Counted from the first letter of the stretch, positions 6,418-43,664 are shown. The stretch is 64,000 nucleotides of DNA from Vermamoeba vermiformis (GCA_045837725.1 JBEWZL010000066.1:1-64000); one strand, 5' to 3'. Notes: a model not told the origin generated them from the letters alone. Made by a program: numbers and translations.

Positions 6418-8096
6418 TCAATAGACCCGCACATCTTCTCCTGCAGTCACCTGATATCGAATGGCGAATGAAGAGCGCTCTCGGAGAGCACGCAGCACTT
6501 GATCGATGTTATTTGGTGGCTCCTGCCTGTCCGCATCTTCATCAGTGTTCCGGAATTTGAAGTAGACGAGCGACACTAGCGGGCTTAAACTCAGAAGATG
6601 CTTCGGATTTTTCATGCGCTTGGTACATATGGTGAGCATGCGCAAGTTTGCCAACGTCGTGAGTGGATCGATGGAGCTGGCACCAAGATGTGAAAAGTCA
6701 ACCAGATGCAGAACCTCCAAATTCGTAAGTGAGTGGCACAGGGTATTAATCAGACGTTGTTCCTCCATTTTTGTGGCAGTTGGCGCATAGATATTGAGTT
6801 TGGTGAGTTTAGTCAATGGCGCGATCCACTTGTCCTCTAATGAGGCGTTGGTCAAGTTGAGGCGATTGAGATTAGTCATCTTTGATATCCATTGCACATT
6901 TTGAGAAACGAGATTGTTTGCGCTCACGTGGCAAGTCTCCAGCTGAGTAAATTGTTCGAAATCCGACGAGACTACATTCCACGCAGTGATCAGAGTGAAG
7001 TGCCTAAGCTTCGATAACGCTGTAAAGGGCGTAATGGCGTTTGATCGGTAGAAATTGAGCGACAAAGACTCCAAGTTCGTCAAACGGAGTATGCTGTCCA
7101 CTTCCGCCTGTGATCCGACGGCATTGATCCCAAGACTGGTCAAGCACTTCTGTAATGTTGACAAGTGGCTAAATAAACGTGGTCTAGAGTCTAATCTTCG
7201 CACGATAATAACGAGCTCGTTCAAATTGGTCAGCAGGGGCAAGCTCAACCAATCGCTGACATTATCTGCCACGTGCAATTCTAGCGACATTAAGCCTGTT
7301 ATAGATGCTATTTCACTGAGATTAAACTGTCGGAATGTGTTGGTGAATTTAAGTTGAGTTAGGTTTGCAAAAGCAGGCAGGCGGATCTGCGCATTCTGGG
7401 CGGGATTGTCACTATCGTAGCAGGCCAAGGCTTGTAGATTAGGGCACTCCGCGGCACACTCGAGTATCTTGTTCGACAAGGGCGAACAAATGAGGTGTTG
7501 AAGGCGTGGCATCTTCGTCAGGACGTTGGGACACCAGTACTCTGCGGAGGGCACGAGATCGGGATCCAAACTCTCCAATGTGCAATTTAATCGTGTTAAA
7601 TGTCTTAATTGTCCCACATGTGATGTTAATTCGTAGCTAAGAAAGCCGGTATCATCCAAGCTGTTGAAGAGTGAGAACTGTTGCAGACGTGTCAACCGTG
7701 TTAGATCCGCGAAGGCACTGATGTCCTTGATGGGGGACGTGATAAACAGCCTTTCTAAATTTGGTAAGTTGCTGATGCGAGACACGAACTGGCTGCGGAC
7801 TCTTCGCCAAGACAAATCTAAAGTGCGGATTGACTGCAGGGCATTTTTAAACCAAAGTTTGGATACTGAAAGTGTGGTAAAAATATACCAGCTCGGTAAA
7901 TAGGAGCAGATATGAATTATTAGCTCGTTTGGCAGTTGATCAAATCCAGATCCGTTATTTAATTTTCTTCTCTAGATTAAATTACATCATTAATACTTCT
8001 CAAATTAAATAATTCTTATTAATTTGTGTAATAAGATAATACCTTTTCAGCGCGAGTGTTTGGTTTCTGTTGCGGGTTAGATTGCCTTCGTTTCAT
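6418..8096 (-). CDS. F-box + leucine-rich repeat protein
   Basis: FDQLPNELIIHICSYL..LSVSKLW F-box upstream of a 465-aa LRR ORF (LxxLxxLxL repeats); one 5' intron. Confidence 0.85.
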
Positions 8097-8347
8097 GTCT
8101 GTCGGCTAACAAGACAGCAAGCCTTTAAACGACCATAATTTTGGCACTATATTGTTGATGCAATAGATCAAAACAAAAATAGACCGTGATTTTTTGGTGT
8201 CGACTTTTTGGCGGATCACGTGCCAGGCTGTGCGCTGACCCATGCGCTCGATAATCTTGGTGCTTCGCTATAATATTGGCGTTCGATCTATAGTCGCAGA
8301 AGTTTGACCTGCAGAGGTTGGAGGTAGCATAATATGAAGTCTCGCCG

Positions 8348-9673
8348 TCACATCACCAAGCATCTCCGTTTAACTTTGTATCGCACGTCTGCTTCGACTG
8401 GCTCGTGGCGCCAAAGCCATGCGCTAGGACAACATCGTTAATTATATTACTATAACGTGAACTAAAATCTTGTTATTACCATTTGGCACGCAAAGCGTCT
8501 TCGGTAATCGACTGCATTGCTTGCTCCAGTGTCTCATAGTTGATCGATGAGACCTCGTAGTACTTCATGTGAACTAGAGAGGCGAGGTACTAGAAGGGAA
8601 GACTAATGAATATTCTGGTTGTCTCACACGTGCGTTGACTTACTCTTGCTTCAATAACAGACACTTGACGCCCCTGTTGAGCATCAGATTTCAATCCGAT
8701 CAACACAAATGTAGCATTCTCCCGGATGTAGCTCTTGTTCTCGTAACACAGCCGCATCCACTCGTCCATGTCCTCAAAGGATTTTCTGTCATCGATCGCG
8801 AACATGAATGCGATTAAATCCGTATTCTTGTAGAAACTTGATATAAACTTGTAGAATCTACGTTGCTATACAAACACCCATTAGAACAGAGTCGCGTTGG
8901 CTTGATATCTTACATCTGGAGGATCCCACTGTAGACATCGATTAGAACAAGACAACTAAGAAATTATATCGATATATCGTACCGCTTGTAGTATTACTTC
9001 TACCCCGTCAACATATTGCAGCCTTCGGATTCGCTGCAACCACGGGTTAGTCACGCCACGTAAAACTTGGTTTAAACCGTACAAAATCACCAGCAACGTA
9101 TGATTCATAATCGGGGGCATATTTGGCACTCTAAAGACGCTAGATTAGGTCGTAAGAGAGGGTTAGTCTCCGAATTTACCGAGAACGAATCCACGAAAGT
9201 GGTTTTGCCAACGCCTGGACTGCCACTTAATAGCATCTTTAACACATAGTAATCTGCATAATCGGGCTTCGAAGTAACACCGATGCGCTTTTCCCAACTA
9301 AACCGTGTGATTAATTTTCGCGATCTAGATCAAATTGTGTCTCGTACCATTCATGGATTTCTTCGTCCGTTGCTTTTTGAACATTTATTTCTCGAAAGAA
9401 ATTGAAATAATCTGTAATCAAATTTGCAGGTTTATCGTTAAAATAAATTGAAATAATTAAAAGGCTAATTTGCCTCCAAGTGGGTAAAATTGACTTACTT
9501 TTGTTGAGGTCATAGCCAAAAAAATTAGAAATATTTTCTTCTTGCACTAGATTGGAGAAGGACTTGCAAATTCGTCTGATCGCAATTAAATCCGTTATTT
9601 GGTCGACAAAACGAATTATATTACACCATATTTCAGGTGGAAGTGAATTATATGGATTAACGTTGCGTTCCAT
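8348..9673 (-). CDS. F-box + Rab/Ras-like small GTPase domain with C-terminal CaaX, spliced
   Basis: F-box SLPPEIWCNIIRFV; G1 GSPGVGKT; G3 position WDPPDQ; G4 GLKSD; ends KVKRRCLVM*. Canonical GT-AG joins keep the frame. Confidence 0.8.
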
Positions 9674-9700
9674 TCGCCTAACAACAATATATTACAAATT

Positions 9701-11359
9701 TTATTGCATTTCCTTCTCGCCCGCAATTTTATCGTCTCTTTTAGCGCGCACAATAATCTTAAAAGGATTTGCAAAGACTTCTCGGGCAATTAAATCGAAT
9801 CCTCCGACGCCAGGGTACTTCACATGCTTCAAAATGAGGAACCAAACTTCTGCAGGAAAAATCAAGAACGCATCCGCACTCCTTGCAATGTTGTATATAA
9901 TTAGCATAGTCTTCAGTCGTACTTCTTTTTGATATTGTCTGTTTCTTTTCAATAACTTGGGTAGCTGCTTGCATCCACTGAAAGTCGTCAAGTTGGTGAT
10001 CGCGTAGTTCGTTGACAAAGATTCTACTGCTCTAGTGAGAACCTCTGAAGAAACAGAAATGTTGCCCAAAGTCAAATTCGTCAGCGATTGGTTGTCTTTT
10101 AAATACTTCATCGCATTTTCAAACATTTCTTCGTTCATTCCAACCCACACCATTGAGAGCCGCAGCAATGTAGTGTTGTGTTGTAATGCTTCAAAAATGT
10201 CTTCCATTCCATCTTTGATATTATTCCCATCCATATTTAGCTCTTGCAGCGTAGTATTGTACTTCAATATTTGTACGAGCGCATTCGAGTTTTGATGGTT
10301 GAAGCCAAAATTCAAGTTTGTGATTTGTGCCGTCTTCAATGCTTCGAATAATTCATTGCCAGCGCTTGCTCCTGCTGGGAAATTGCGCCGTAAACTAACG
10401 TACGCAAAAGTTCGGCCTTTGAATAGATCCGCTAGACATTTTCCAGCTTCTGCATCAAATCCGCGGTTGCCTTCTAAATCCAAGTGGACTATAGACTGAT
10501 TTGATTTGAGTCCGTCGCATAAAAGCTTCAATGCTGGTATTCCAATTTCGCTTTCTCGCAAGCTGAGCGATGTGAGTGACTTGCTAAGAGCCAAATTTTG
10601 CACGAATTCTTTGCAGTGCACATCGAAGTAATTGTAGCCTAAATCAAGTGCCTTCAGCCGCTGATATGGCAATAGTGATCCGATGTCGTTGAATCCTGGC
10701 GCACGTATGCTGTTGGTCTGCAAAGACAGCTCCGTCACTGAAGTATTCTTCTTTAGTGCTCGCACCAGTTGTTGAGCGCCAATATTGCCTAATTGGTTGC
10801 CTCCCAGCCATAGTCTTTGAAGTGTGGTGTTACACTCAAGGGCGTCGCAAATGACTTTCAAATCGTCTGAGCTCATTGAATTAGCTACAGCGTAAGACGC
10901 CAAGCTGAGACTGGTCAGTGTTGTGTTCTCTTTGAGCACGGGGCAAATGCAGCCGTAAGAACCAGGAGAGACGAGATTTGAAGCGAATATTAACGTCTTC
11001 AATGTAGTGTTAGTCTGGAGTGACTTGCATAGTGCTATAAATCCTGCGTCTCGAATGGCATTCTTTGAAAGGTTGAGTGACGTGATTGATCTGTTAGATC
11101 GCAACACTTCTGCAAGTAGCTCACATTGCGCGTCCGTTATCTTCCTTGAGCTTAAATCTACTCTTTTTAATTTGAAGGCTACGAAGGAAATTCCTTTTTT
11201 TAAGCAATGATACAGGTCTTCAACGGATTCCACCTAAAATAATTTGTTAAATATTTTAATTATTAAATTTGAGGGCATCCTATTATCTATTACCTCAATT
11301 TCCACGCTATTAGTAGGCACTCGCTTTTTATCCAATTTTCTATTGGTATTTTTCTTCAT
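9701..11359 (-). CDS. RI-type LRR protein (NLRC3/CARMIL-like repeats) with a C-terminal F-box-like motif
   Basis: Repeats of LxxNtsLxxLxLxxNxI; C-terminal FLIFPAEVWFLILKHV; short first exon MKKNTNRK..EIE. Confidence 0.85.
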
Positions 11360-11497
11360 TTTGGGATCTGATAATCATAGACGTGCCACCCACAAGCTAG
11401 TCAAGCGTATAATAAAAAAACTATATCTAAAGACCAAGCATTTGGTCAGGGCTTGTTGTATTCGACCAGCTGCGAAATTGATTTATTTTGAAAAGAT

Positions 11498-16585: not shown

Positions 16586-19500
16586 CTATTTATGATCTTC
16601 GGCGAGCAATAGTTGCTTCTTGCGGCATTTTTCAATTTTTAGCTCCAAGATCATTTCTTTCTCCTTGGTCTGGTTATACTTGTGTCTTTTTTTAATGAGC
16701 TCTTCTTTGTCCTTATTAAGATCTATTTCTAAACTCTTCCTTTTGTTTAGAGTAATCAACTTCTCGCTCCAGCGACGGCGGTTAAGGGTTATGGACGTAT
16801 CGGCCTTTAACAGCTCAGGAGTCTTATCGCTCAAGCGTCGGAGCTTTTTCGCGATTTTTTTGTGCTTGGATTCCAACGAGCGAATTTTCTTGCGGATCTC
16901 TTTCGTCTTGGGACGCAGTTGTGGATGCTTTGTGTACACGCGCTCGATCGTGTCCCTGCAAGCACCCAAACGCTTCAATACATCGACAGGATCTGCTACG
17001 TCGCCAGCGTACTTCTCAATATGCTCAAACATGACGTTGCCATTCTTGAGAATGAAAGCGCCACCGAGTTGTCTGAGGAACGAGGGTAAGACAGTGGACT
17101 CGATGCAATTGTTAAGACTTACAATATATCCCCTTGTATAGGACCCTGAAAATATCCAAGTGCACGAGCTTCAGCGTTCATAGCTTGCGTCTTTGGATTT
17201 AAAACGCCTTTGATCCAACCCCGTTGGCATCTGAAGTCGTCGTACAAATGACGAGCTTCATCAACGTAGATCTCACCCTCTGTCACGTGGCGTTAGTGAG
17301 AAGACCGGGTACATAATATTTTATACTTACCGAACTTAAACTCTTCCTTAAAAGCTTTAGCTTGAGCAGCAGTTCCCGTGCTAACAGCGACGAGTTTAAC
17401 GCCCCTAAATTTAGTTAGCTCGAAATTTCATCGTGTAATAACAAGTAGAAGCACTTACAGTCTATCGAGATGAGGCTTGATCATCATCAACTCAGATGCG
17501 GTTTTTCGGCAAATAATACTGAAGAAAAAGAGATCGATTAGATCTTGCCCGTGCAGATTATGATGAATGTGGCCTTACCATCCAAAATGTCTTAAGAAGA
17601 CGAACAATACAGTCTTATTCGCGACTACTGAGTTGAACTCAATCAAATTGCCCAATGAGGTCGTGACTTCTCGTTTCAACACCCAAGGAGGCAGAGGATA
17701 CAACCCCTCGCCGTGCATCGCGTCAATAGTAGTCTCTTCTACTCCAAGATCCTCTTCGCTGCTTTCCGCATCCTCTTCTGGAGGATCACTGTCGATGGAC
17801 GCGTACGACTTGCTCATGTCTATCGGACCAAGGTTAGTAAACTTGTATGCAATATTTCGAATATGTTAAGTACATACCTATACTGCTAGTGCTGCTTGCG
17901 TTTGAAACTACTCGCCCTAGCTCGTATAGTTCACTTTCGTTCAAGATCGTGCTTCGTTGGATGTTGACCAGGTAACGTTGAATATGAGGAATAGCGACGA
18001 ATTCATAAGAAGCAGTTTGATGGTAATTAAACTTAAATAAGATCTTTCCAATGCTCGAGAGCTTATGCCAATTGATACGATTGTCTTCTTCGATGGTTTC
18101 AAGTTCTTCCAAGTGCATCAGATCACGCAAAATTAACGCTAGTAAAGAGCATTAGTGGCTTTCATTGGACAATAAGATTATGTACTACTCACCAATATAA
18201 GGGATACAAGGTGCTTGAGCCGATTCTAACTCCCGGCGGTAATTCTTGAAGTTCAATCTGTGATCCATGAGCTTTTTAACCTCTTCGAAACTTTGAACGA
18301 CTTCTTCGGGCAAATTAGGGACAATTCTGTCCATTAACTTGGAGATTGCACCGTTGTTCAATGCCGAGTAGAAGATCATGACTCCATTGAAATTGCTCAA
18401 GCTCCAAAGCTCGCGCATGATCATAATAAACTTGGCAATGCGTTGCGGCCGCTCTTCGGAAGTAGCCATGACTATTTGTGTGCAGATCCACCGCGAGCTC
18501 TGAAAATTCGGAAGTTGTTAGTACAGCGGAAGTAATTAACTACATAACTTGACATACGTCATTAAAGAAGCTGACGAATCGACCCAAGGGCGTATCACTT
18601 GAATCAGTTTCCTTCTCGAATCGCTTCTTGATCAAGACTTCCATCGGGATCCGTTTGAAACTTTCAAAACTGATCAGCGTGAATTGTTCGGCAATGTCTC
18701 GGGCAGTGTCTTCAATAATATCAAATTGGATCGATTTGATGCAATTGTACAAGCTATTGCTTCTCTTTCTACCGCTCATTGGCAAATCTTCTTTGCCCGG
18801 TGAAATCTCGCGCGACATCCGCTTGTAAAGCACGGCGCTGACATCTTTATCGACTTGATTAAGGCCTTCAGAAAGATCACCTGCGAATTCACGTATGATA
18901 CGCATGCATTCGGAGCTTTCTTTAATCTGCGGCTTGAGATTCATCAATTTACTGAGCGTGTTGACCGTTCTAATTGAACGACGCAATTGGTTAATAAATT
19001 AATACGCGGATCTATTATTAGTACGTACCTCATTTTAATCGAGTATTGGTCTTCACGTTCTGAAATGCTTCTGGGATAAAGCTCGATAATTTTCTTCACC
19101 AACTTCAAGTTTGACAGTAAGTAGTCGGATGTGAGCAAGAAGTACGTTGCAAACATAGAATCTATTAATCAATCGTTAATTATGGTATAAATACACGATA
19201 CTAAGGTCGATTTATACCTTTTCTTGAATTTCTAACGAGTTCGACGAGGAGTTCCTCCAGCGTAGCGGATTCGAGTGGTTTTAAAAGTGCAGCTTGTTTA
19301 ATTTTATCAAGTTCAGTACTTTCAGTCTAAGTATCAACATTAGTAATAGATAGATTAAAGTTAAAAACTCGAATTTTATTCCGCTTCATGTACTTACAAA
19401 GTCATCGCTCAAAAGTTGCTTGACCTTTCTGCTCGAATATGGCGTGCCAAGACTCCATCGTTTGGATCTGCCAAGACCTCCCTGCGAATCAGCTGAAACA

Positions 19501-27851: not shown

Positions 27852-29725
27852 TTAGTTTTTCATGATTTGGCCGTCAGACTCCTTCTTTGAGGGCGACCAA
27901 TCATTGCCAACATCCTTTTGAACTTCAACGGGGTGAGTTCGATCGACTTCAGGACCGACGCGCTCGCCGCTCATTTCAGATTGTTTAGGCTTAGACTCCA
28001 TAGTCTGGCTGACCTTGGTCTTAGTCTCGTCGATCTTCTCGGATGCGTTGTCCTTGGCGCGAGAAACAGCTTCAGAAACCTTTTCTTTGACGGTCTCGTA
28101 CATCTCGCCAGCCTTTTCCTTGGCAATGGAAGCGTATTCTACTGTCTTTTCTTTAGCGACTTCACCGGCTTTGCTAGCTGAATACGACGGTAACGTTAAT
28201 AAATTGTTTTAGGAATGCTAGAGTTAATTTAGGTAATTACCTTTGTCGGCAAGAACTTCCTTAGCCTTGCCCAAGATATCACCAGCCTTGTCCTTGATCA
28301 CAACAAAGGCTTCAGCGGCCTTCTCCTTGGCGGCTTCAGCGTATTCTCCAGCCTTTTCCTTGGCCACGGCACCGAGATCAGCAGCCTTCTCCTTGGCAAC
28401 GTTAGCATACTCAGCGGCCTTCTCCTTAGCGGCTTCAGTGTACTCAGCGGCCTTTTCTTTGGCGACAGTACCGACGTCAGCGGCCTTGTCCTTGGCAACT
28501 TCAACGTAGTCAGCAGCCTTGTCCTTGGCAGCAGCACCGAGGTCTTGAGCCTTCTCTTTGGCGGCTTCAGTGTACTCTCCAGCCTTCTCTTTCACGGTCT
28601 CAAAGGCGTTGGCAGCCTTGTCCTTGGCAGCGGCACCGAGATCTTGAGCCTTGTCCTTAGCGACTTCAGCGTATTCTCCGGCCTTCTCCTTGGCAGCAGC
28701 ACCGAGGTCAGTTGCGCCTTGTCCTTGGCGGTTTCAAAAGCATTGGCAGCCTTGTCCTTAGCAGCGGCACCGAGGTCTTGAGCCTTGTCCTTGGCAACTT
28801 CGGCGTAGTCAGCAGCCTTGTCCTTAACTGTCTCGTAGGCGTTGGCGGCCTTGTCCTTGGCGGCGGCACCGAGGTCCTGAGCCTTGTCTTTAGCAGCGGC
28901 ACCGAGATCTTGGGCCTTGTCTTTGGCAACTTCATAAGCATACGAAGCACTGCTGGTGGCCTTGGCACCGAGATCTTGAGCTTTGTCCTTCACGGTTTCT
29001 TTGGCATCAGCGGCCTTATCTTTAGCATTCTCATAAGCGTTTCTAGCCTTAGCCTTGACGTCTTCAGTCTTGTTCGCGACCTTTTGCTCCAAGTCGCGCA
29101 TGCCCTTGGCTTGTTCGCGCATGTTCTCGCTGGCTTGCTTCTTCGCACCTTCCATCACGTCTTCAGCCTTCTCCTTGACCCACTCTTTAGCATCGCTCAT
29201 CTTCTCCTTGACGGTCTCGACGGACTCTGAGGCCTTGTTCTTGACGGTCTTCATTGTGTCGCTAGGGTTGTTGTACGCATCTGCGATCTTGTCACCGGCA
29301 CGAGCGGCTGTGGCTTTAGTGGCTTCCTTGGCACGGCGACCAATATCGCTGGCAGCGGTCTTCAAGTCAGAGGCGGCTTGTTTGGCATCGCTCTTGACTT
29401 CGTTGATCTTGCCCTTGGCTTGATCGGCCTTCTCGTAAGCGAAATCCACAATGTCGTCTGTGCCATCAGTCCAAGCAGTGTTCTTTGATTTGCGAACGGA
29501 GTCTTCGAGGTCGTTGGTGTATTGCTTGTTGTTTCTGGTTTCAGGGAAGATCTCTTTGTTGTTGTTCTTCAAAGGTGAAGATCCTTTCGTGTCGTTGCCC
29601 TTGGGAGCGCTGATCGAGTAGTTGCGAGCAAAAATTGACGAAGCTACTGTGGTGCGAGTAGTTCTGGACGATGAAGCAAGGACCAACTTGCTAATATTGC
29701 GTCTAGAAATGTTAATAAAGCTCAT
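27852..29725 (-). CDS. Group 3-like LEA protein with 11-mer repeats and a probable mitochondrial presequence; apparent frameshift near 28710
   Basis: AKDKAQDLGAA/AKEKAAEYAEA 11-mers; Arg/Ser-rich N-terminus lacking acidic residues; frame changes between ORFs 28592..29725 and 28224..28595. Confidence 0.85.
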
Positions 29726-30585
29726 CTTGGTTGTCTTGTGTTTGTTGATTTCAAAAAAATTGTTGAATTAATGTCGTTTAACTTGGCTATTTAAACTTGC
29801 CGGTACAAGCACGACATGCGACAAAAAATAATTTTGCTTGAATAAAAAACGAAATCTGGGTGAAAAATGCTTGGGAGTCGAATTCATACGATTTTTCTAT
29901 TGTTTTCCATTATGGCGTGATTTTTAAATCTTATTATTGCCGTACCTTAATTATTGAGATAATTCTGCAATTTCTGAACGAGCGGATGCCACCTTTGTTC
30001 GTTTTCATTTGGCACGCTTTGTTATCGTCGGTAAGCACAACATTGAGAATATGCTGTTAACAGTTACACGGAATTATGAAGTTGTCGTGCTCCTGCTTCT
30101 ACAAAAAATATTATGTTCAGAAAGATTTGATTTTTTCACTGCCCTTTGAGAGATTGACAACAGTTGTCTTACCCTCGCCCATTATCTTCATGACTTGATC
30201 GAACCTCGTGGCAATTATTAATATATTGTGCGAGTTCGCTAACCCCCTAACCCCCTCCGCTTCGAATCTGATCGACCGATTAGCCAAGGACTCTATCAGC
30301 GCATGCAAGGACCTCCGCTTACCTTCAGTTACCTAACAGATCATGGAGAAAAACGCCCGAGGTAATTAATCTTAAACAATTAGCGAAATTAGTTATGGCG
30401 CCTCATTTGCACTTAATCAAAATTATAAAATTCTGTTACACGGAAATACAATACACGCTAACATAATCTACGCGATATTCGACTTAACTGAAATTTGAGC
30501 GAATTTGCAAACTGAATCCGATCGGATCTGGACCAGATCGAAATGCTGAAATAGTCTTAACGAATTACTTGCTACAGACACGAAT

Positions 30586-40735: not shown

Positions 40736-43664
40736 TTACAAAATGATGCTGAGCTTGGAATTTCGCGGAGTTTTCTTGTAGCTCAGTGACACGTTCGGAC
40801 AGCTCGACACGTTCAACATCGTCAATGTCGGATGATTTTTTGCCGCTTCAACGACGCGATCTGTCACGGACTGAAGTCCACCGATGATCAGTTGCACGAG
40901 TGACTTGCAGTTAGTGAGCACGTGGAGCAAAGCCTCTTCGGACACGTAATAGCAGTACGATAACATGAGCTCTTTCACTGATGGTGCATACGTTGCAAAT
41001 GCCCTCACAGTTGCTGCACTCAACTGAAAAAAATCAGGTTAGTACTGGTCAGCTAAATGAGCAACTGACAAAAGGAGATTTTGTAGTTGGTTGTTTGTCG
41101 TACCTTGTTATTGTAGCGCAAGTCGATCACTCGCAAACTGCCATTAGAACCTTTCAGGAGTCTAAAGATCTGATCGTCGGAGAGCTGATGGCACTCGCTG
41201 AGGTGCAGCGACTCAAGATAATTATAGGCAATATCCAGCTGTTGCAGTTGTTGGCAGCCATCAAGATTCAAACTACGAAATTTCCGCGTTAGAACGGAGT
41301 CAAGTAAAGATTTTTCTTCGTCTTACTTTTGCAATGGCGCCATGCACGTGACTGACTTAAGTTGATGGCAATAAGGGAATTCGAGGTTGTTGATGACGCC
41401 CTTGGACTCAATTACCACGTTCTCGAACTGATAACAAGCAACACCTGACACGTCGTACAATGACACGTCTGTCATACGCACGACATTCAAGCTGGAAGCG
41501 CAGTTGAGCGTCAACATGAGAGGTCGCGAACATTGCTCCAAGTGCAACTCCGTCAACAGATTGCAGTCGGAAATGTGAAGGTCACCGAGTCTCGGGCATT
41601 GTACCACTCTCAATGAGCTCAATGCTGCACACTGCGAAACAACACGTGTTAAAAGGTGTGTTGGAAATGAAATTTCGTGTGGTACTTACTGCAGGCAACT
41701 TGACGTATTCGAGCTTGGATTTGCTTTCGAAAGTGAGTTGACGCACGGTGTTACTGCTAAATACTAAGGCTTCTAAAGCAACGCATTCGTCGATCATTGT
41801 TTGCACTCCTTTGTCTACCCAAGCCAAAAACAGGGTTAGTAAAGTCTAGCGAGAAAATATGAAGTTGTGTTCGTACCGGTGACTTGACACTTGGCGGCGC
41901 AAAGGCGGCGAAAATTAGGGCAATTCTTCGCGATAGAAATCAAGGTAGCGTCTCCTATTTTAGATTTCTTCCAAAATTGGGATGATCTCGATGAGACATC
42001 CACAGCAAGAACTTCCAAATTAGGGCATGCTACAGCGATGTTCGCAAAGTCCGTGTCTGAGCCCACGAGAAATTGGTCGCACTCTAGCACCTATAAATCG
42101 AATGATCAGGTAACTTGTTCATGAATGAGACGTTCGGTCACGTGACCACGTACCTTGAGATTTCGACAAACTGTCGGCAGAGTTTTGACGAACTTGGATG
42201 TGCCTTTGCTGCTTCGCCAGTACTTGAAGATCGACAACCGAAGCAATTCTAAACTCTGAAAACATATTAATCTCCTTATTATTAGTATTATATAAGACCA
42301 AGATATCTTACGGAATTGTTCTTCAGTACATCCAGCAACCCTTCGAGCACGAATTGGTACTCGGTTCCATCAAGGACTTGATAGACCTTCATATCGAGCT
42401 CCTTTAAAGACGTATAATCTTTTAGTATGAGAGGATCATCAATGCTCAGTGCAAGCTTCTCGATCTGGGTCAGCTTCATCAAAGTCAATTCGAAGCTCTG
42501 CGTAGTGCCCCATCTACTAGAATTAACATAAATAACGTATGTACGTGTCGAATTATATGCATAGAATACATACCTTAAGTGCGTGGAGGACAAGTAAAGC
42601 TCCTTCAAGCCAGTACAAAGCTCGATCTGATCGAAGTTCATGAAGTCGCAGAAAGATCTGAAGTCCAGAGAACGAATCTGAGTGTACGGTACAAATGGCT
42701 TCGCGAGCAGGTACGTTGAGCTGACGTCGAAAAGCTTTCGGTGGATGTAGCTGCTGTCGTACGAGAGCTTCACCAAGTTGGTCAATTTGGTGAGGTTAGT
42801 GAACTCGGCCTGGGTTGAAACAGGCAAAATGCCTCGAAATTCAAGAGAAACAAGCTTTGTAGTGAGTTGATTGAGTGCGTTGACCAATGTTTGACCGCGA
42901 AAGAACGGATCGAGCGACTTTGTTTTAACATGTTGAACGTAGGGCCAGACGTTAACAGATTCGTTGCTGAATATTCCGTACCATTTCTTGCATACGAGTC
43001 GAGCGATGAAGAACATGGAAGCGTCGTTAAACGAGAAAATAGAGCAGGTCATTTCCGTCGGTAAATCCAGAATGAACGGCGGATCTAATGACTCATTTTC
43101 TTCTGAAGGATTCTTCCGTTTGCGTCCTACTCGAACGAGGAAGCTTCTTCGGCTATAGAAAGAGAATTAGATCACGCGAACTGAAATTTCCTTTTGTGAT
43201 CTACCTTTCAACTTCGTTTTGGCGGCAAGTAACTACCGAGGGATAATCTTGATCAGCCGTAATTAATTCAGCAACAAATTTGTTGAACGAAGGGGAGCAG
43301 TTATGAAGCAAGCCAAGCGATATAGGTGTCTGGCCGTTGACATCCTGAAATTCAGAATTATTTTTTTTGGTCCTTAAAATAATTCCTAGTTCTAACCGAT
43401 TCATACCTTTAAATTCATATCTGACCCTTGATCGATCAAATATCGTATGCAATCTATATTACCGGCAAGACAAGCGTAGTGTAACGGCGATCGCTCCAAC
43501 GAGTCAAGCGGATCTCGTTGGCTCTTGGCTTTGTGCTCCAAATATAGTGAGCCTAGTCTAGAGAGATTGCCCGCGTAAGCTTCTGCATGAATGTCGCTAA
43601 GTTCTCTCGCAGCCTCCTTTCGCACCTGCTTTCTTTTCTTCGCTTGAGGCTCCTGCATCTGCAT
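40736..43664 (-). CDS. Ankyrin + F-box + LRR protein
   Basis: SPLHYACLAGNIDCIRYLI ankyrin; ILDLPTEMTCSIFSF..ARLVCKKW F-box; FBXL-type Cys-containing LRRs. Confidence 0.8.

Follow-up and report, generated by a model that had tools for sequence, protein, structure and literature searches.

The closest described counterparts of the gene analysed here come from Naegleria, whose divergent Rab-like clades carry an N-terminal F-box extension, accompanied in one clade by a conserved CaaX box (Herman et al. 2021, BMC Biol 19:142, PMC8296547, Supplementary Material 4). Our subject is a gene of the same general layout, residing in a stretch of 64,000 nucleotides (nt) of DNA from Vermamoeba vermiformis (GCA_045837725.1 JBEWZL010000066.1:1-64000), referred to below as the window; its predicted product joins an N-terminal F-box, a Rab-like guanine nucleotide-binding (G) domain and a C-terminal CaaX box. 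The Naegleria proteins form three clades, said to be without discernible close relatives outside that genus, and the disrupted state of some copies was read by the authors as birth-and-death evolution; they also inferred GTPase-dependent ubiquitination and suggested roles 'at the organism-environment interface' (PMC8296547). Table S8 of that study contains many 'Rab ... F-box' entries (72 occurrences of the word in one file), one of which, from Naegleria gruberi, has the G4 motif GLKSD and an altered G3 motif, WDSGGN (PMC8296547). Matched by description only, the Naegleria clades and the window gene share the F-box, the linker, the Rab-like G domain, the CaaX box (one clade) and divergent G motifs, but the window gene has eight introns and lies outside Naegleria. 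This architecture is thus already known, and the window gene is another example of it; the novelty implied by an earlier note on this DNA was set too high, given the published Naegleria proteins. In the literature on F-box-Rab fusions beyond Naegleria and the precedents cited here, we found no description of such proteins for Amoebozoa or other groups. On balance, we favour the view that this is a real, intact and constrained gene, encoding a lipid-anchored adaptor of Skp1-Cullin1-F-box (SCF) ubiquitin ligases with a Rab-like binding module.

Small-GTPase domains have repeatedly been recruited into adaptors of cullin-RING ligases. Rab40, in which a Rab-type G domain is joined to a cullin-RING docking motif, is described as a substrate receptor of Cullin5 ligases (CRL5), but its docking motif is a C-terminal SOCS box acting through Elongin B/C-Cul5, whereas the F-box of the window protein is N-terminal and predicted to engage Skp1-Cul1. 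RhoBTB, with a Rho-type, partly degenerate G domain and BTB domains, is described as a Cullin3 adaptor, and F-box and BTB fusions are reported for the ARF family (Vargova et al. 2021, bioRxiv 10.1101/2020.10.31.363457); these proteins differ from the one studied here in GTPase family or docking domain. In FBXO4, an F-box is followed by an atypical small GTPase domain that is reported to recognize substrates without switching (PMC7086354), but the window protein differs from it in keeping the P-loop, a clear Rab similarity and a CaaX tail. TbFRP of Euglenozoa, described as a membrane-targeted, rapidly processed protein of 63.8 kDa composed of FYVE, F-box and Ras-like GTPase domains (PMC3593210), is another protist protein in which an F-box immediately precedes a G domain of the Ras superfamily; however, its N-terminal FYVE domain binds the membrane, whereas the window protein is predicted to use a farnesyl-polybasic tail. 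Finally, FBXL2/FBL2, a prenylated F-box protein with leucine-rich repeats (LRRs), combines an F-box with a CaaX box and so provides a precedent for a lipid-anchored SCF adaptor (PMC1847700), but its substrate-binding part consists of LRRs and it has no G domain.

The F-box/Rab-like/CaaX gene and its product

The gene is encoded on the minus strand, with the ATG at 9673 and the TGA stop codon at 8350-8348. Its nine exons give a stop-free spliced frame of 879 nt, corresponding to 292 codons and a protein of 292 amino acids (aa), and all eight introns (48-87 nt) have the form GT...AG; the 16 splice sites are intact. The exons, as placed by the gene model, are the following:

Exon 1, 9499..9673, minus strand: initiating ATG, then the F-box at residues 10-47 (about 9533-9646); model and Pfam.
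Exon 2, 9348..9411, minus strand: linker; model.
Exon 3, 9180..9297, minus strand: end of the linker, strand beta1 and P-loop GSPGVGKT (9201-9224); model, with generic P-loop matches only in Pfam.
Exon 4, 9083..9130, minus strand: switch I region YESYVAGDF, with Tyr for the conserved Thr; model and alignments.
Exon 5, 8983..9033, minus strand: interswitch strands (RIRRLQYVDGVEVILQA); model.
Exon 6, 8914..8928, minus strand: 15-nt microexon, WDPPD (G3, with Pro-Pro-Asp for Thr-Ala-Gly); model.
Exon 7, 8644..8865, minus strand: Gln158 and switch II through G4 (LKSD, 8683-8694); Pfam Ras, E 5.8e-11.
Exon 8, 8480..8589, minus strand: G5 region (EVSS) and C-terminal helix; model.
Exon 9, 8348..8423, minus strand: hypervariable tail with RYKVKRR (8363-8383), CaaX box CLVM (8351-8362) and stop codon (8348-8350).

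The presence of an F-box at the N-terminus (residues 10-47), already proposed in the earlier note, is borne out by Pfam, in which exon 1 matches the F-box family PF00646 with an E-value of 5.2e-7 (29.8 bits, curated cut-off 20.5) and also exceeds the threshold of the F-box-like family PF12937 (E 4.2e-6, 26.9 bits, cut-off 24.3). Exon 1 gave F-box matches only and, with the start of the protein 10 residues ahead of the F-box, there is no FYVE domain such as that of TbFRP; the distance of 10 residues between the initiating Met and the [LF]P of the F-box is identical in copy A of the metagenomic locus L021, one of the relatives described below. The Rab-like nature of the G domain was confirmed as well. 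Exon 7 by itself is sufficient for the Pfam Ras match listed above, and the complete spliced domain (residues 99-265) can be aligned over its entire length to Rab-like proteins of 197-198 aa (90-91 bits). The solved structures most similar to exon 7 are those of Rab9B/Rab9A, Rab7-like proteins, Rab12, Ypt6 and Rab1; kinship with FBXO4 was not apparent, since the best 60 of the 66 matches in the PDB are all Rab or Rit proteins, and exon 1 produced no match at E <= 10 among PDB F-box chains. In an Atlas look-up, FBXO4 clusters were among the nearest (0.80, which is below the meaningful level), and 65% of the members of a mollusc 'FBXO4-like' cluster have a Pfam Arf match. No SOCS_box match was obtained with exons 7 and 8 in Pfam, and the roughly 30 residues beyond the G domain leave no space for such a box.

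The motifs of the G domain are conserved to different degrees. G1 (GSPGVGKT, residues 105-112) fits the consensus GxxxxGK[ST] and, as the earlier note had stated, is intact. Switch I (YESYVAGDF, residues 127-135, positions 9083-9109) lacks the conserved G2 Thr, as also noted earlier: Tyr130 is aligned with the Thr of the TIG motif found in Rab-like proteins and in the relatives P0023, P0116 and copy B of L021 and L052. In G3 (WDPPDQ, residues 153-158) the usual DxxG(Q) is replaced by D-P-P-D-Q, with the Asp and Gln retained and the Gly changed to Asp. G4 (LKSD, residues 215-218) deviates from [NT]KxD; its description as intact in the earlier note holds for the Lys and Asp but not for the Asn of NKxD, which is lost here as well as in the relatives (LKSD in P0116, LKAD in P0023, AKSD and SKSD in L021/L052).

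Rab proteins are typically prenylated at a C-terminal double Cys (CC or CXC), whereas a protein with a CaaX box ends in a Cys followed by two aliphatic residues and a final residue X, with X = Met favouring farnesyltransferase. The window protein has no double Cys at its end; residues 282-292 form the polybasic sequence RYKVKRR followed by CLVM and immediately by the stop codon, in agreement with the tail first proposed for it. A CaaX box ending in Met beside a polybasic stretch is the farnesyl-electrostatic membrane anchor of the K-Ras4B type.

The earlier note had assigned most of WDPPDQ to a microexon at 8914-8928, and indeed WDPPD corresponds exactly to this 15-nt exon, with the Gln provided by the first codon of the following one. 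The two flanking introns (54 and 48 nt) are of the GT-AG type and each has CTAAT 13-15 nt from its 3' end; CTAAC or CTAAT occurs 13-15 nt before the 3' end in four of the eight introns, including these two. Inclusion of the microexon restores the alignment with Rab proteins from beta3 to G3. Splicing that yields a canonical G3 would have contradicted the earlier note, but the 117-nt stretch separating exon 5 from exon 7, when read directly, revealed no alternative exon encoding WDTAGQ. Intron 1 (9498-9412, 87 nt) has a length divisible by three and contains no in-frame stop codon, and its retention may therefore give rise to an isoform of 321 aa.

It is improbable, in our estimation very much so, that the gene model is an artefact, with the F-box exons deriving from a different transcript (either a small gene encoding nothing but an F-box or the 3' part of the adjacent LRR gene) or with the G domain forming a gene of its own. 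The stop codon of an upstream open reading frame (ORF) with LRRs lies only 28 nt ahead of the F-box-Rab ATG and is overlapped by AATAAA, while an acceptor-like sequence, TTGTTGTTAG, ends 4 nt ahead of this ATG. The short gap (region 9674-9703) and the acceptor-like site could reflect tight gene packing, an intron in the 5' untranslated region or operon-like trans-splicing. Three in-frame GT...AG joins between the LRR ORF and the F-box-Rab ATG are formally possible; these candidates were rejected, as all have weak donors (GTTCTT, GTTCCT, GTACCC) that are unlike the donors of the gene itself (GTAAGT, GTACGA, GTAAAT, GTACGG, GTAAGA, GTAATA). Retention of introns 1 and 2 would leave an F-box-only ORF of 126 aa, and three RNA runs gave 0, 2 and 1 reads on the region. 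On the other hand, the only Met preceding G1 (M101) lies inside strand beta1, leaving the G domain without a usable start codon of its own, and relatives of 290-314 aa start alike and combine the two parts within a single exon, transcript or ORF. Taken together, the exon model, the missing start codon and these relatives support the presence of F-box, Rab-like G domain and CaaX box in one gene, which is the fusion that the earlier note had put forward.

Relatives with the same layout

An exhaustive phmmer search with exon 7 identified 165 proteins at E <= 0.001, of which the best 150 were examined. Twenty of these were picked for extra sequence preceding the G domain and scanned with Pfam, and one, P0023 (290 aa), contains both domains (F-box-like, E 3.4e-8; Ras, E 9.7e-28). 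P0023 is the complete ORF of a transcript of Mastigella eilhardi (EukProt) and ends with CAIS. A second protein, P0116, is encoded by a Joint Genome Institute (JGI) metagenome ORF of 314 aa and has the G3 motif WDTPD (D-T-P-D-C), the G4 motif LKSD and an N-terminus resembling an F-box, albeit with a score below the Pfam cut-off. In a language-model look-up, Rab40/SOCS-box clusters were the closest to P0023 and P0116 (0.81-0.82; leads only). The predicted structure of P0023 shows a Rab fold, with a predicted local distance difference test (pLDDT) score above 90 in the G domain; its top Foldseek match is Rab1b (3nkv_B, E 1.6e-17, template modelling score 0.92), and only Rab chains are present among the matches listed.

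A second scan of metagenome contigs, based on sequence patterns, produced 66 loci. Two of these, L021 and L052, match the window gene in kind and represent versions of one locus with about 97% identity; the genes at the remaining 64 are of the usual Rab-like sort, with no F-box-type N-terminus that aligns to the queries. L021 and L052 carry tandem genes for proteins of 290-298 aa with an F-box-like N-terminus, a Rab domain and a CaaX tail. Their Rab domains have the canonical WDTAGQ and the switch I Thr, G4 of the form [AS]KSD and C-termini CTIV or CTIS, so that a CaaX tail is common to these genes and to P0023. The F-box-like region and the P-loop are encoded within a single exon. Moreover, the two introns of these genes correspond in aligned position and in phase to introns 3 and 5 in the window: the end of window exon 3 corresponds to the end of exon 1 in the L021/L052 genes, and the intron following window exon 5 falls just ahead of WD, as it does in those genes. 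When the N-terminal region of the window protein was aligned with that of L021 copy A, the score of 50 (shuffled sequences, 25.3 +/- 4.7) was reached by 4 of 3000 shuffles, whereas comparisons with P0023 and P0116 were no better than shuffles (268/3000 and 390/3000, respectively).

Copy A differs between the two versions of this locus: L052:1404-2329 and L021:151-1082 are distinguished by 25 mismatches, one deletion of 3 nt that keeps the frame and another of 4 nt that shifts it in L052. The latter could represent a broken allele or an assembly error, and it fits the birth-and-death picture published for the Naegleria clades (PMC8296547). Plain Rab-like ORFs in AT-rich metagenome contigs (L013:421-996 and L012:1-405) have the G3 motifs WDPPGQ or WDPSGQ, which place Pro in switch II but keep the Gly, a normal NKSD and no visible F-box.

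Other searches added no further members. A word-index search with exon 7, restricted to longer proteins, found no homologue, and one with P0023 found only P0023 itself and archaeal and other small GTPases. A first metagenome scan, with exon 7 and P0001 (a short library protein discussed below) as queries, gave 181 pattern matches, none of which was confirmed; the same was true of 6 matches in viral contigs scanned with P0116. Within the 64-kb window there are no paralogues of the F-box-Rab gene.

Constraint and proposed role of the protein

The gene looks alive and constrained, with the above exons coding, in view of the mostly synonymous differences in its exons and the confinement of insertions and deletions (indels) to other regions. 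Comparison of the DNA contigs designated X1 with the window revealed 18 single-base differences within the gene, equally divided between exons and introns (9 and 9). Six of the nine exonic differences are synonymous and three are conservative non-synonymous changes (V227A, M190L, R159H), which gives a pN/pS ratio (non-synonymous to synonymous polymorphism) of 0.13 (181 synonymous and 695 non-synonymous sites) and a probability of 0.0037 for at least six synonymous changes among nine, figures that are based on small numbers and on a sample, X1, that is possibly the very one from which the window was assembled. All four indels are non-exonic, with introns 3 and 4 accounting for two and the sequence beyond the stop codon for the other two. 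P0001, a library protein of 72 aa with 88% identity to exon 7, extends beyond it into residues resembling intron sequence and appears to be a fragment of an exon from a close relative.

Over much of positions 8100-10300, the X1 contigs include two haplotype-like versions, with 23 single-base differences and 4 indels, which suggests a heterozygous or mixed source. Water-metagenome sequencing runs contain 25-39% of the sampled words from the same region.

F-boxes dock on Skp1-Cul1, and in small GTPases two residues, the Thr of switch I and the Gly of G3, contact the gamma-phosphate, driving the conformational change between the GTP- and GDP-bound (guanosine tri- and diphosphate) states. In the mechanism that we propose, the F-box would place the window protein on Skp1-Cul1 as an SCF adaptor, while farnesylation of CLVM, together with the polybasic stretch, would hold it on acidic membranes in the manner of K-Ras4B. 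The Rab-like domain would serve as the module that binds partners or substrates, comparable to the corresponding parts of Rab40/CRL5, RhoBTB/CUL3 and FBXO4. A canonical GTP switch is unlikely in this protein, because neither the Thr of switch I nor the Gly of G3 is retained; with both gamma-phosphate sensors replaced (by Tyr and Asp, respectively), canonical GTP/GDP switching would not be expected, and the domain may act as a constitutive binding surface, possibly still occupied by a nucleotide. Retention of G1 and of the Lys and Asp of G4 suggests that a nucleotide may still be bound; the label 'pseudo-GTPase', chosen in the earlier note, is putative. Relatives with canonical motifs, such as those encoded by L021/L052, may represent GTP-gated versions. 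By analogy to Rab40/CRL5, RhoBTB/CUL3, FBXO4 and the Naegleria F-box GTPases, a role as an SCF substrate receptor at membranes appears to be the most reasonable reading.

Several observations weigh against this interpretation. The F-box is less evident in some of the relatives than in the window protein: the N-terminus of P0116 reaches only E 0.02 and 15.1 bits in the F-box-like family, and the matches of the L021/L052 proteins (E about 1e-3, 19.5 and 19.2 bits) are also below the cut-off of 24.3, while L052 copy A gives no F-box-like match at E <= 0.1. Structure prediction of exon 1 alone with AlphaFold (9-row alignment) produced a long helix (residues 13-45) and a short one, not a three-helix F-box (pLDDT 72.9, predicted template modelling score 0.38), and in the model of P0023 the F-box region consists of several short helices of low confidence (pLDDT 49-67). 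Loss of the G4 Asn implies that nucleotide binding may be weak or absent. Genes for F-box Rab-like proteins appear to decay often, judging from the disrupted Naegleria copies (PMC8296547) and the 4-nt deletion in L052 copy A. Three RNA runs carrying the same species label gave 0, 2 and 1 reads on 8100-10300, too few to test expression or splicing. Furthermore, the six F-box-Rab proteins do not group together in trees. These were built from matches covering at least 130-140 model residues (95 of the 150), from the best 44, and from the best 42 plus the six F-box-Rab proteins; in the last, 48-row tree of G domains, four label changes are required for the six, and the window protein is placed with two plain Rab-like proteins (support 95/90), its partner differing between trees.

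The separation of the six F-box-Rab proteins in the G-domain trees indicates that independent fusions are possible. In the tree of the best 44 rows, P0116 groups with the window protein (93/89, with a long-branch warning), and the branch of the latter is long (1.14-1.16). A single clade of the six was not rejected in the approximately unbiased test (p 0.25); a clade test on a quick tree was uninformative, as the constrained search outperformed the free one. Given the poor resolution of the G-domain trees, a common origin of the six proteins is neither shown nor excluded.

The long branch would also fit a paralogue that is decaying or evolving neutrally within a birth-and-death family, its frame intact but its protein idle and its unusual motifs an early sign of decay. 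Disrupted members of the F-box Rab-like clades of Naegleria (PMC8296547), the frameshift in L052 copy A relative to L021 copy A and the scarcity of RNA reads are compatible with such a state. Nevertheless, we consider it very improbable: all nine exons and 16 splice sites are intact, the low pN/pS ratio and the absence of exonic indels point to selection, P0001 is 88% identical at the protein level, and a G3 of the type D-x-P-D is seen again in P0116, a distant protein.

A different explanation is that the F-box serves the GTPase itself, the G domain having its own role at the membrane with no function as a substrate receptor. F-box proteins are commonly auto-ubiquitinated, and the sequence data fit this arrangement as well as they fit the receptor model. 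A comparable proposal was made in the description of the rapidly processed TbFRP (PMC3593210). However, an independent switch role is hard to envisage for a domain in which both gamma-phosphate sensors are gone, and in Rab40, RhoBTB and FBXO4, as they are described, the fused module serves the selection of substrates or partners. We therefore regard this explanation as unlikely, though deserving of attention.

The earlier note went further and envisaged a possible decoy, which as an integrated decoy would be a locked Rab mimic that baits Rab-seeking proteins, whether regulators or effectors of microbes, and passes them to the SCF ligase at the membrane. Circumstantial points in its favour are the similarity of the G domain to Rab1/Rab7/Rab9 and its presumed inability to switch, the occurrence of the family in amoeboid protists, which are described as grazers and as hosts of Rab-targeting bacteria, and the roles 'at the organism-environment interface' suggested for the Naegleria clades (PMC8296547). 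The polymorphism of the gene, however, is mostly synonymous, unlike that of a surface engaged in an arms race, and we give the decoy very little credence. The more general interpretation of the window protein as a membrane-anchored SCF adaptor with a Rab-like binding module is the one that we retain.

Gene neighbourhood and the wider family

The F-box-Rab gene is flanked on both sides by F-box-type genes of the same strand. Downstream is a gene for an F-box and LRR protein (6418-8095, minus strand), whose ORF (6418-7971) has Pfam matches to F-box (E 1e-5) and LRR_14 and which likely has a first exon with an ATG near 8095. Upstream, the ORF with LRRs mentioned above encodes 510 aa with an LRR_6 match (9701-11233, minus strand) and is preceded by a small ORF (11234-11374, minus strand) with an F-box-like start, MPSNLIIKIFNKL. 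Another F-box-like ORF is located at 42291-43166 (minus strand). Two adjacent ORFs at 18188-18998 (minus strand) each encode one half of a RasGEF domain (E-values of 2.8e-24 and 5.9e-6), which places a gene for a Ras-family exchange factor about 9 kb from the F-box-Rab gene. Repeat-rich ORFs at 28227-29767 (minus strand), resembling late embryogenesis abundant (LEA) proteins, have Apolipoprotein, YtxH and DUF883 matches below the cut-offs; the 2-kb block of LEA-like ORFs has the highest GC content (0.495) and the strongest AT skew (-0.27) of the window.

The design in which a GTPase is combined with docking to a ubiquitin ligase (F-box, Rab-like domain, CaaX box) occurs beyond Naegleria, in the window gene, in the archamoeba Mastigella eilhardi and in two metagenomic sources. 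It is conceivable, although we hold this to be a long shot, that the combination is a recurrent or ancient device of amoeboid protists, providing lipid-anchored SCF adaptors gated by a Rab-type switch, and that the window copy, in which both gamma-phosphate sensors are replaced, as is partly the case in P0116, is a permanently 'on-looking' or nucleotide-blind Rab mimic, trapping Rab-binding proteins (the regulators of the cell itself or microbial effectors) for destruction at the membrane. The new points are modest: an example from an intron-rich eukaryote other than Naegleria, the relatives in Mastigella and metagenomes, and the loss of both sensors in a gene that seems to be constrained. The gain is incremental and comes from sequence alone. 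Since the members of this family appear to range from proteins with canonical switches to those that have lost switch residues under purifying selection, they may offer a natural series bearing on the question of whether the nucleotide state gates the choice of substrate.

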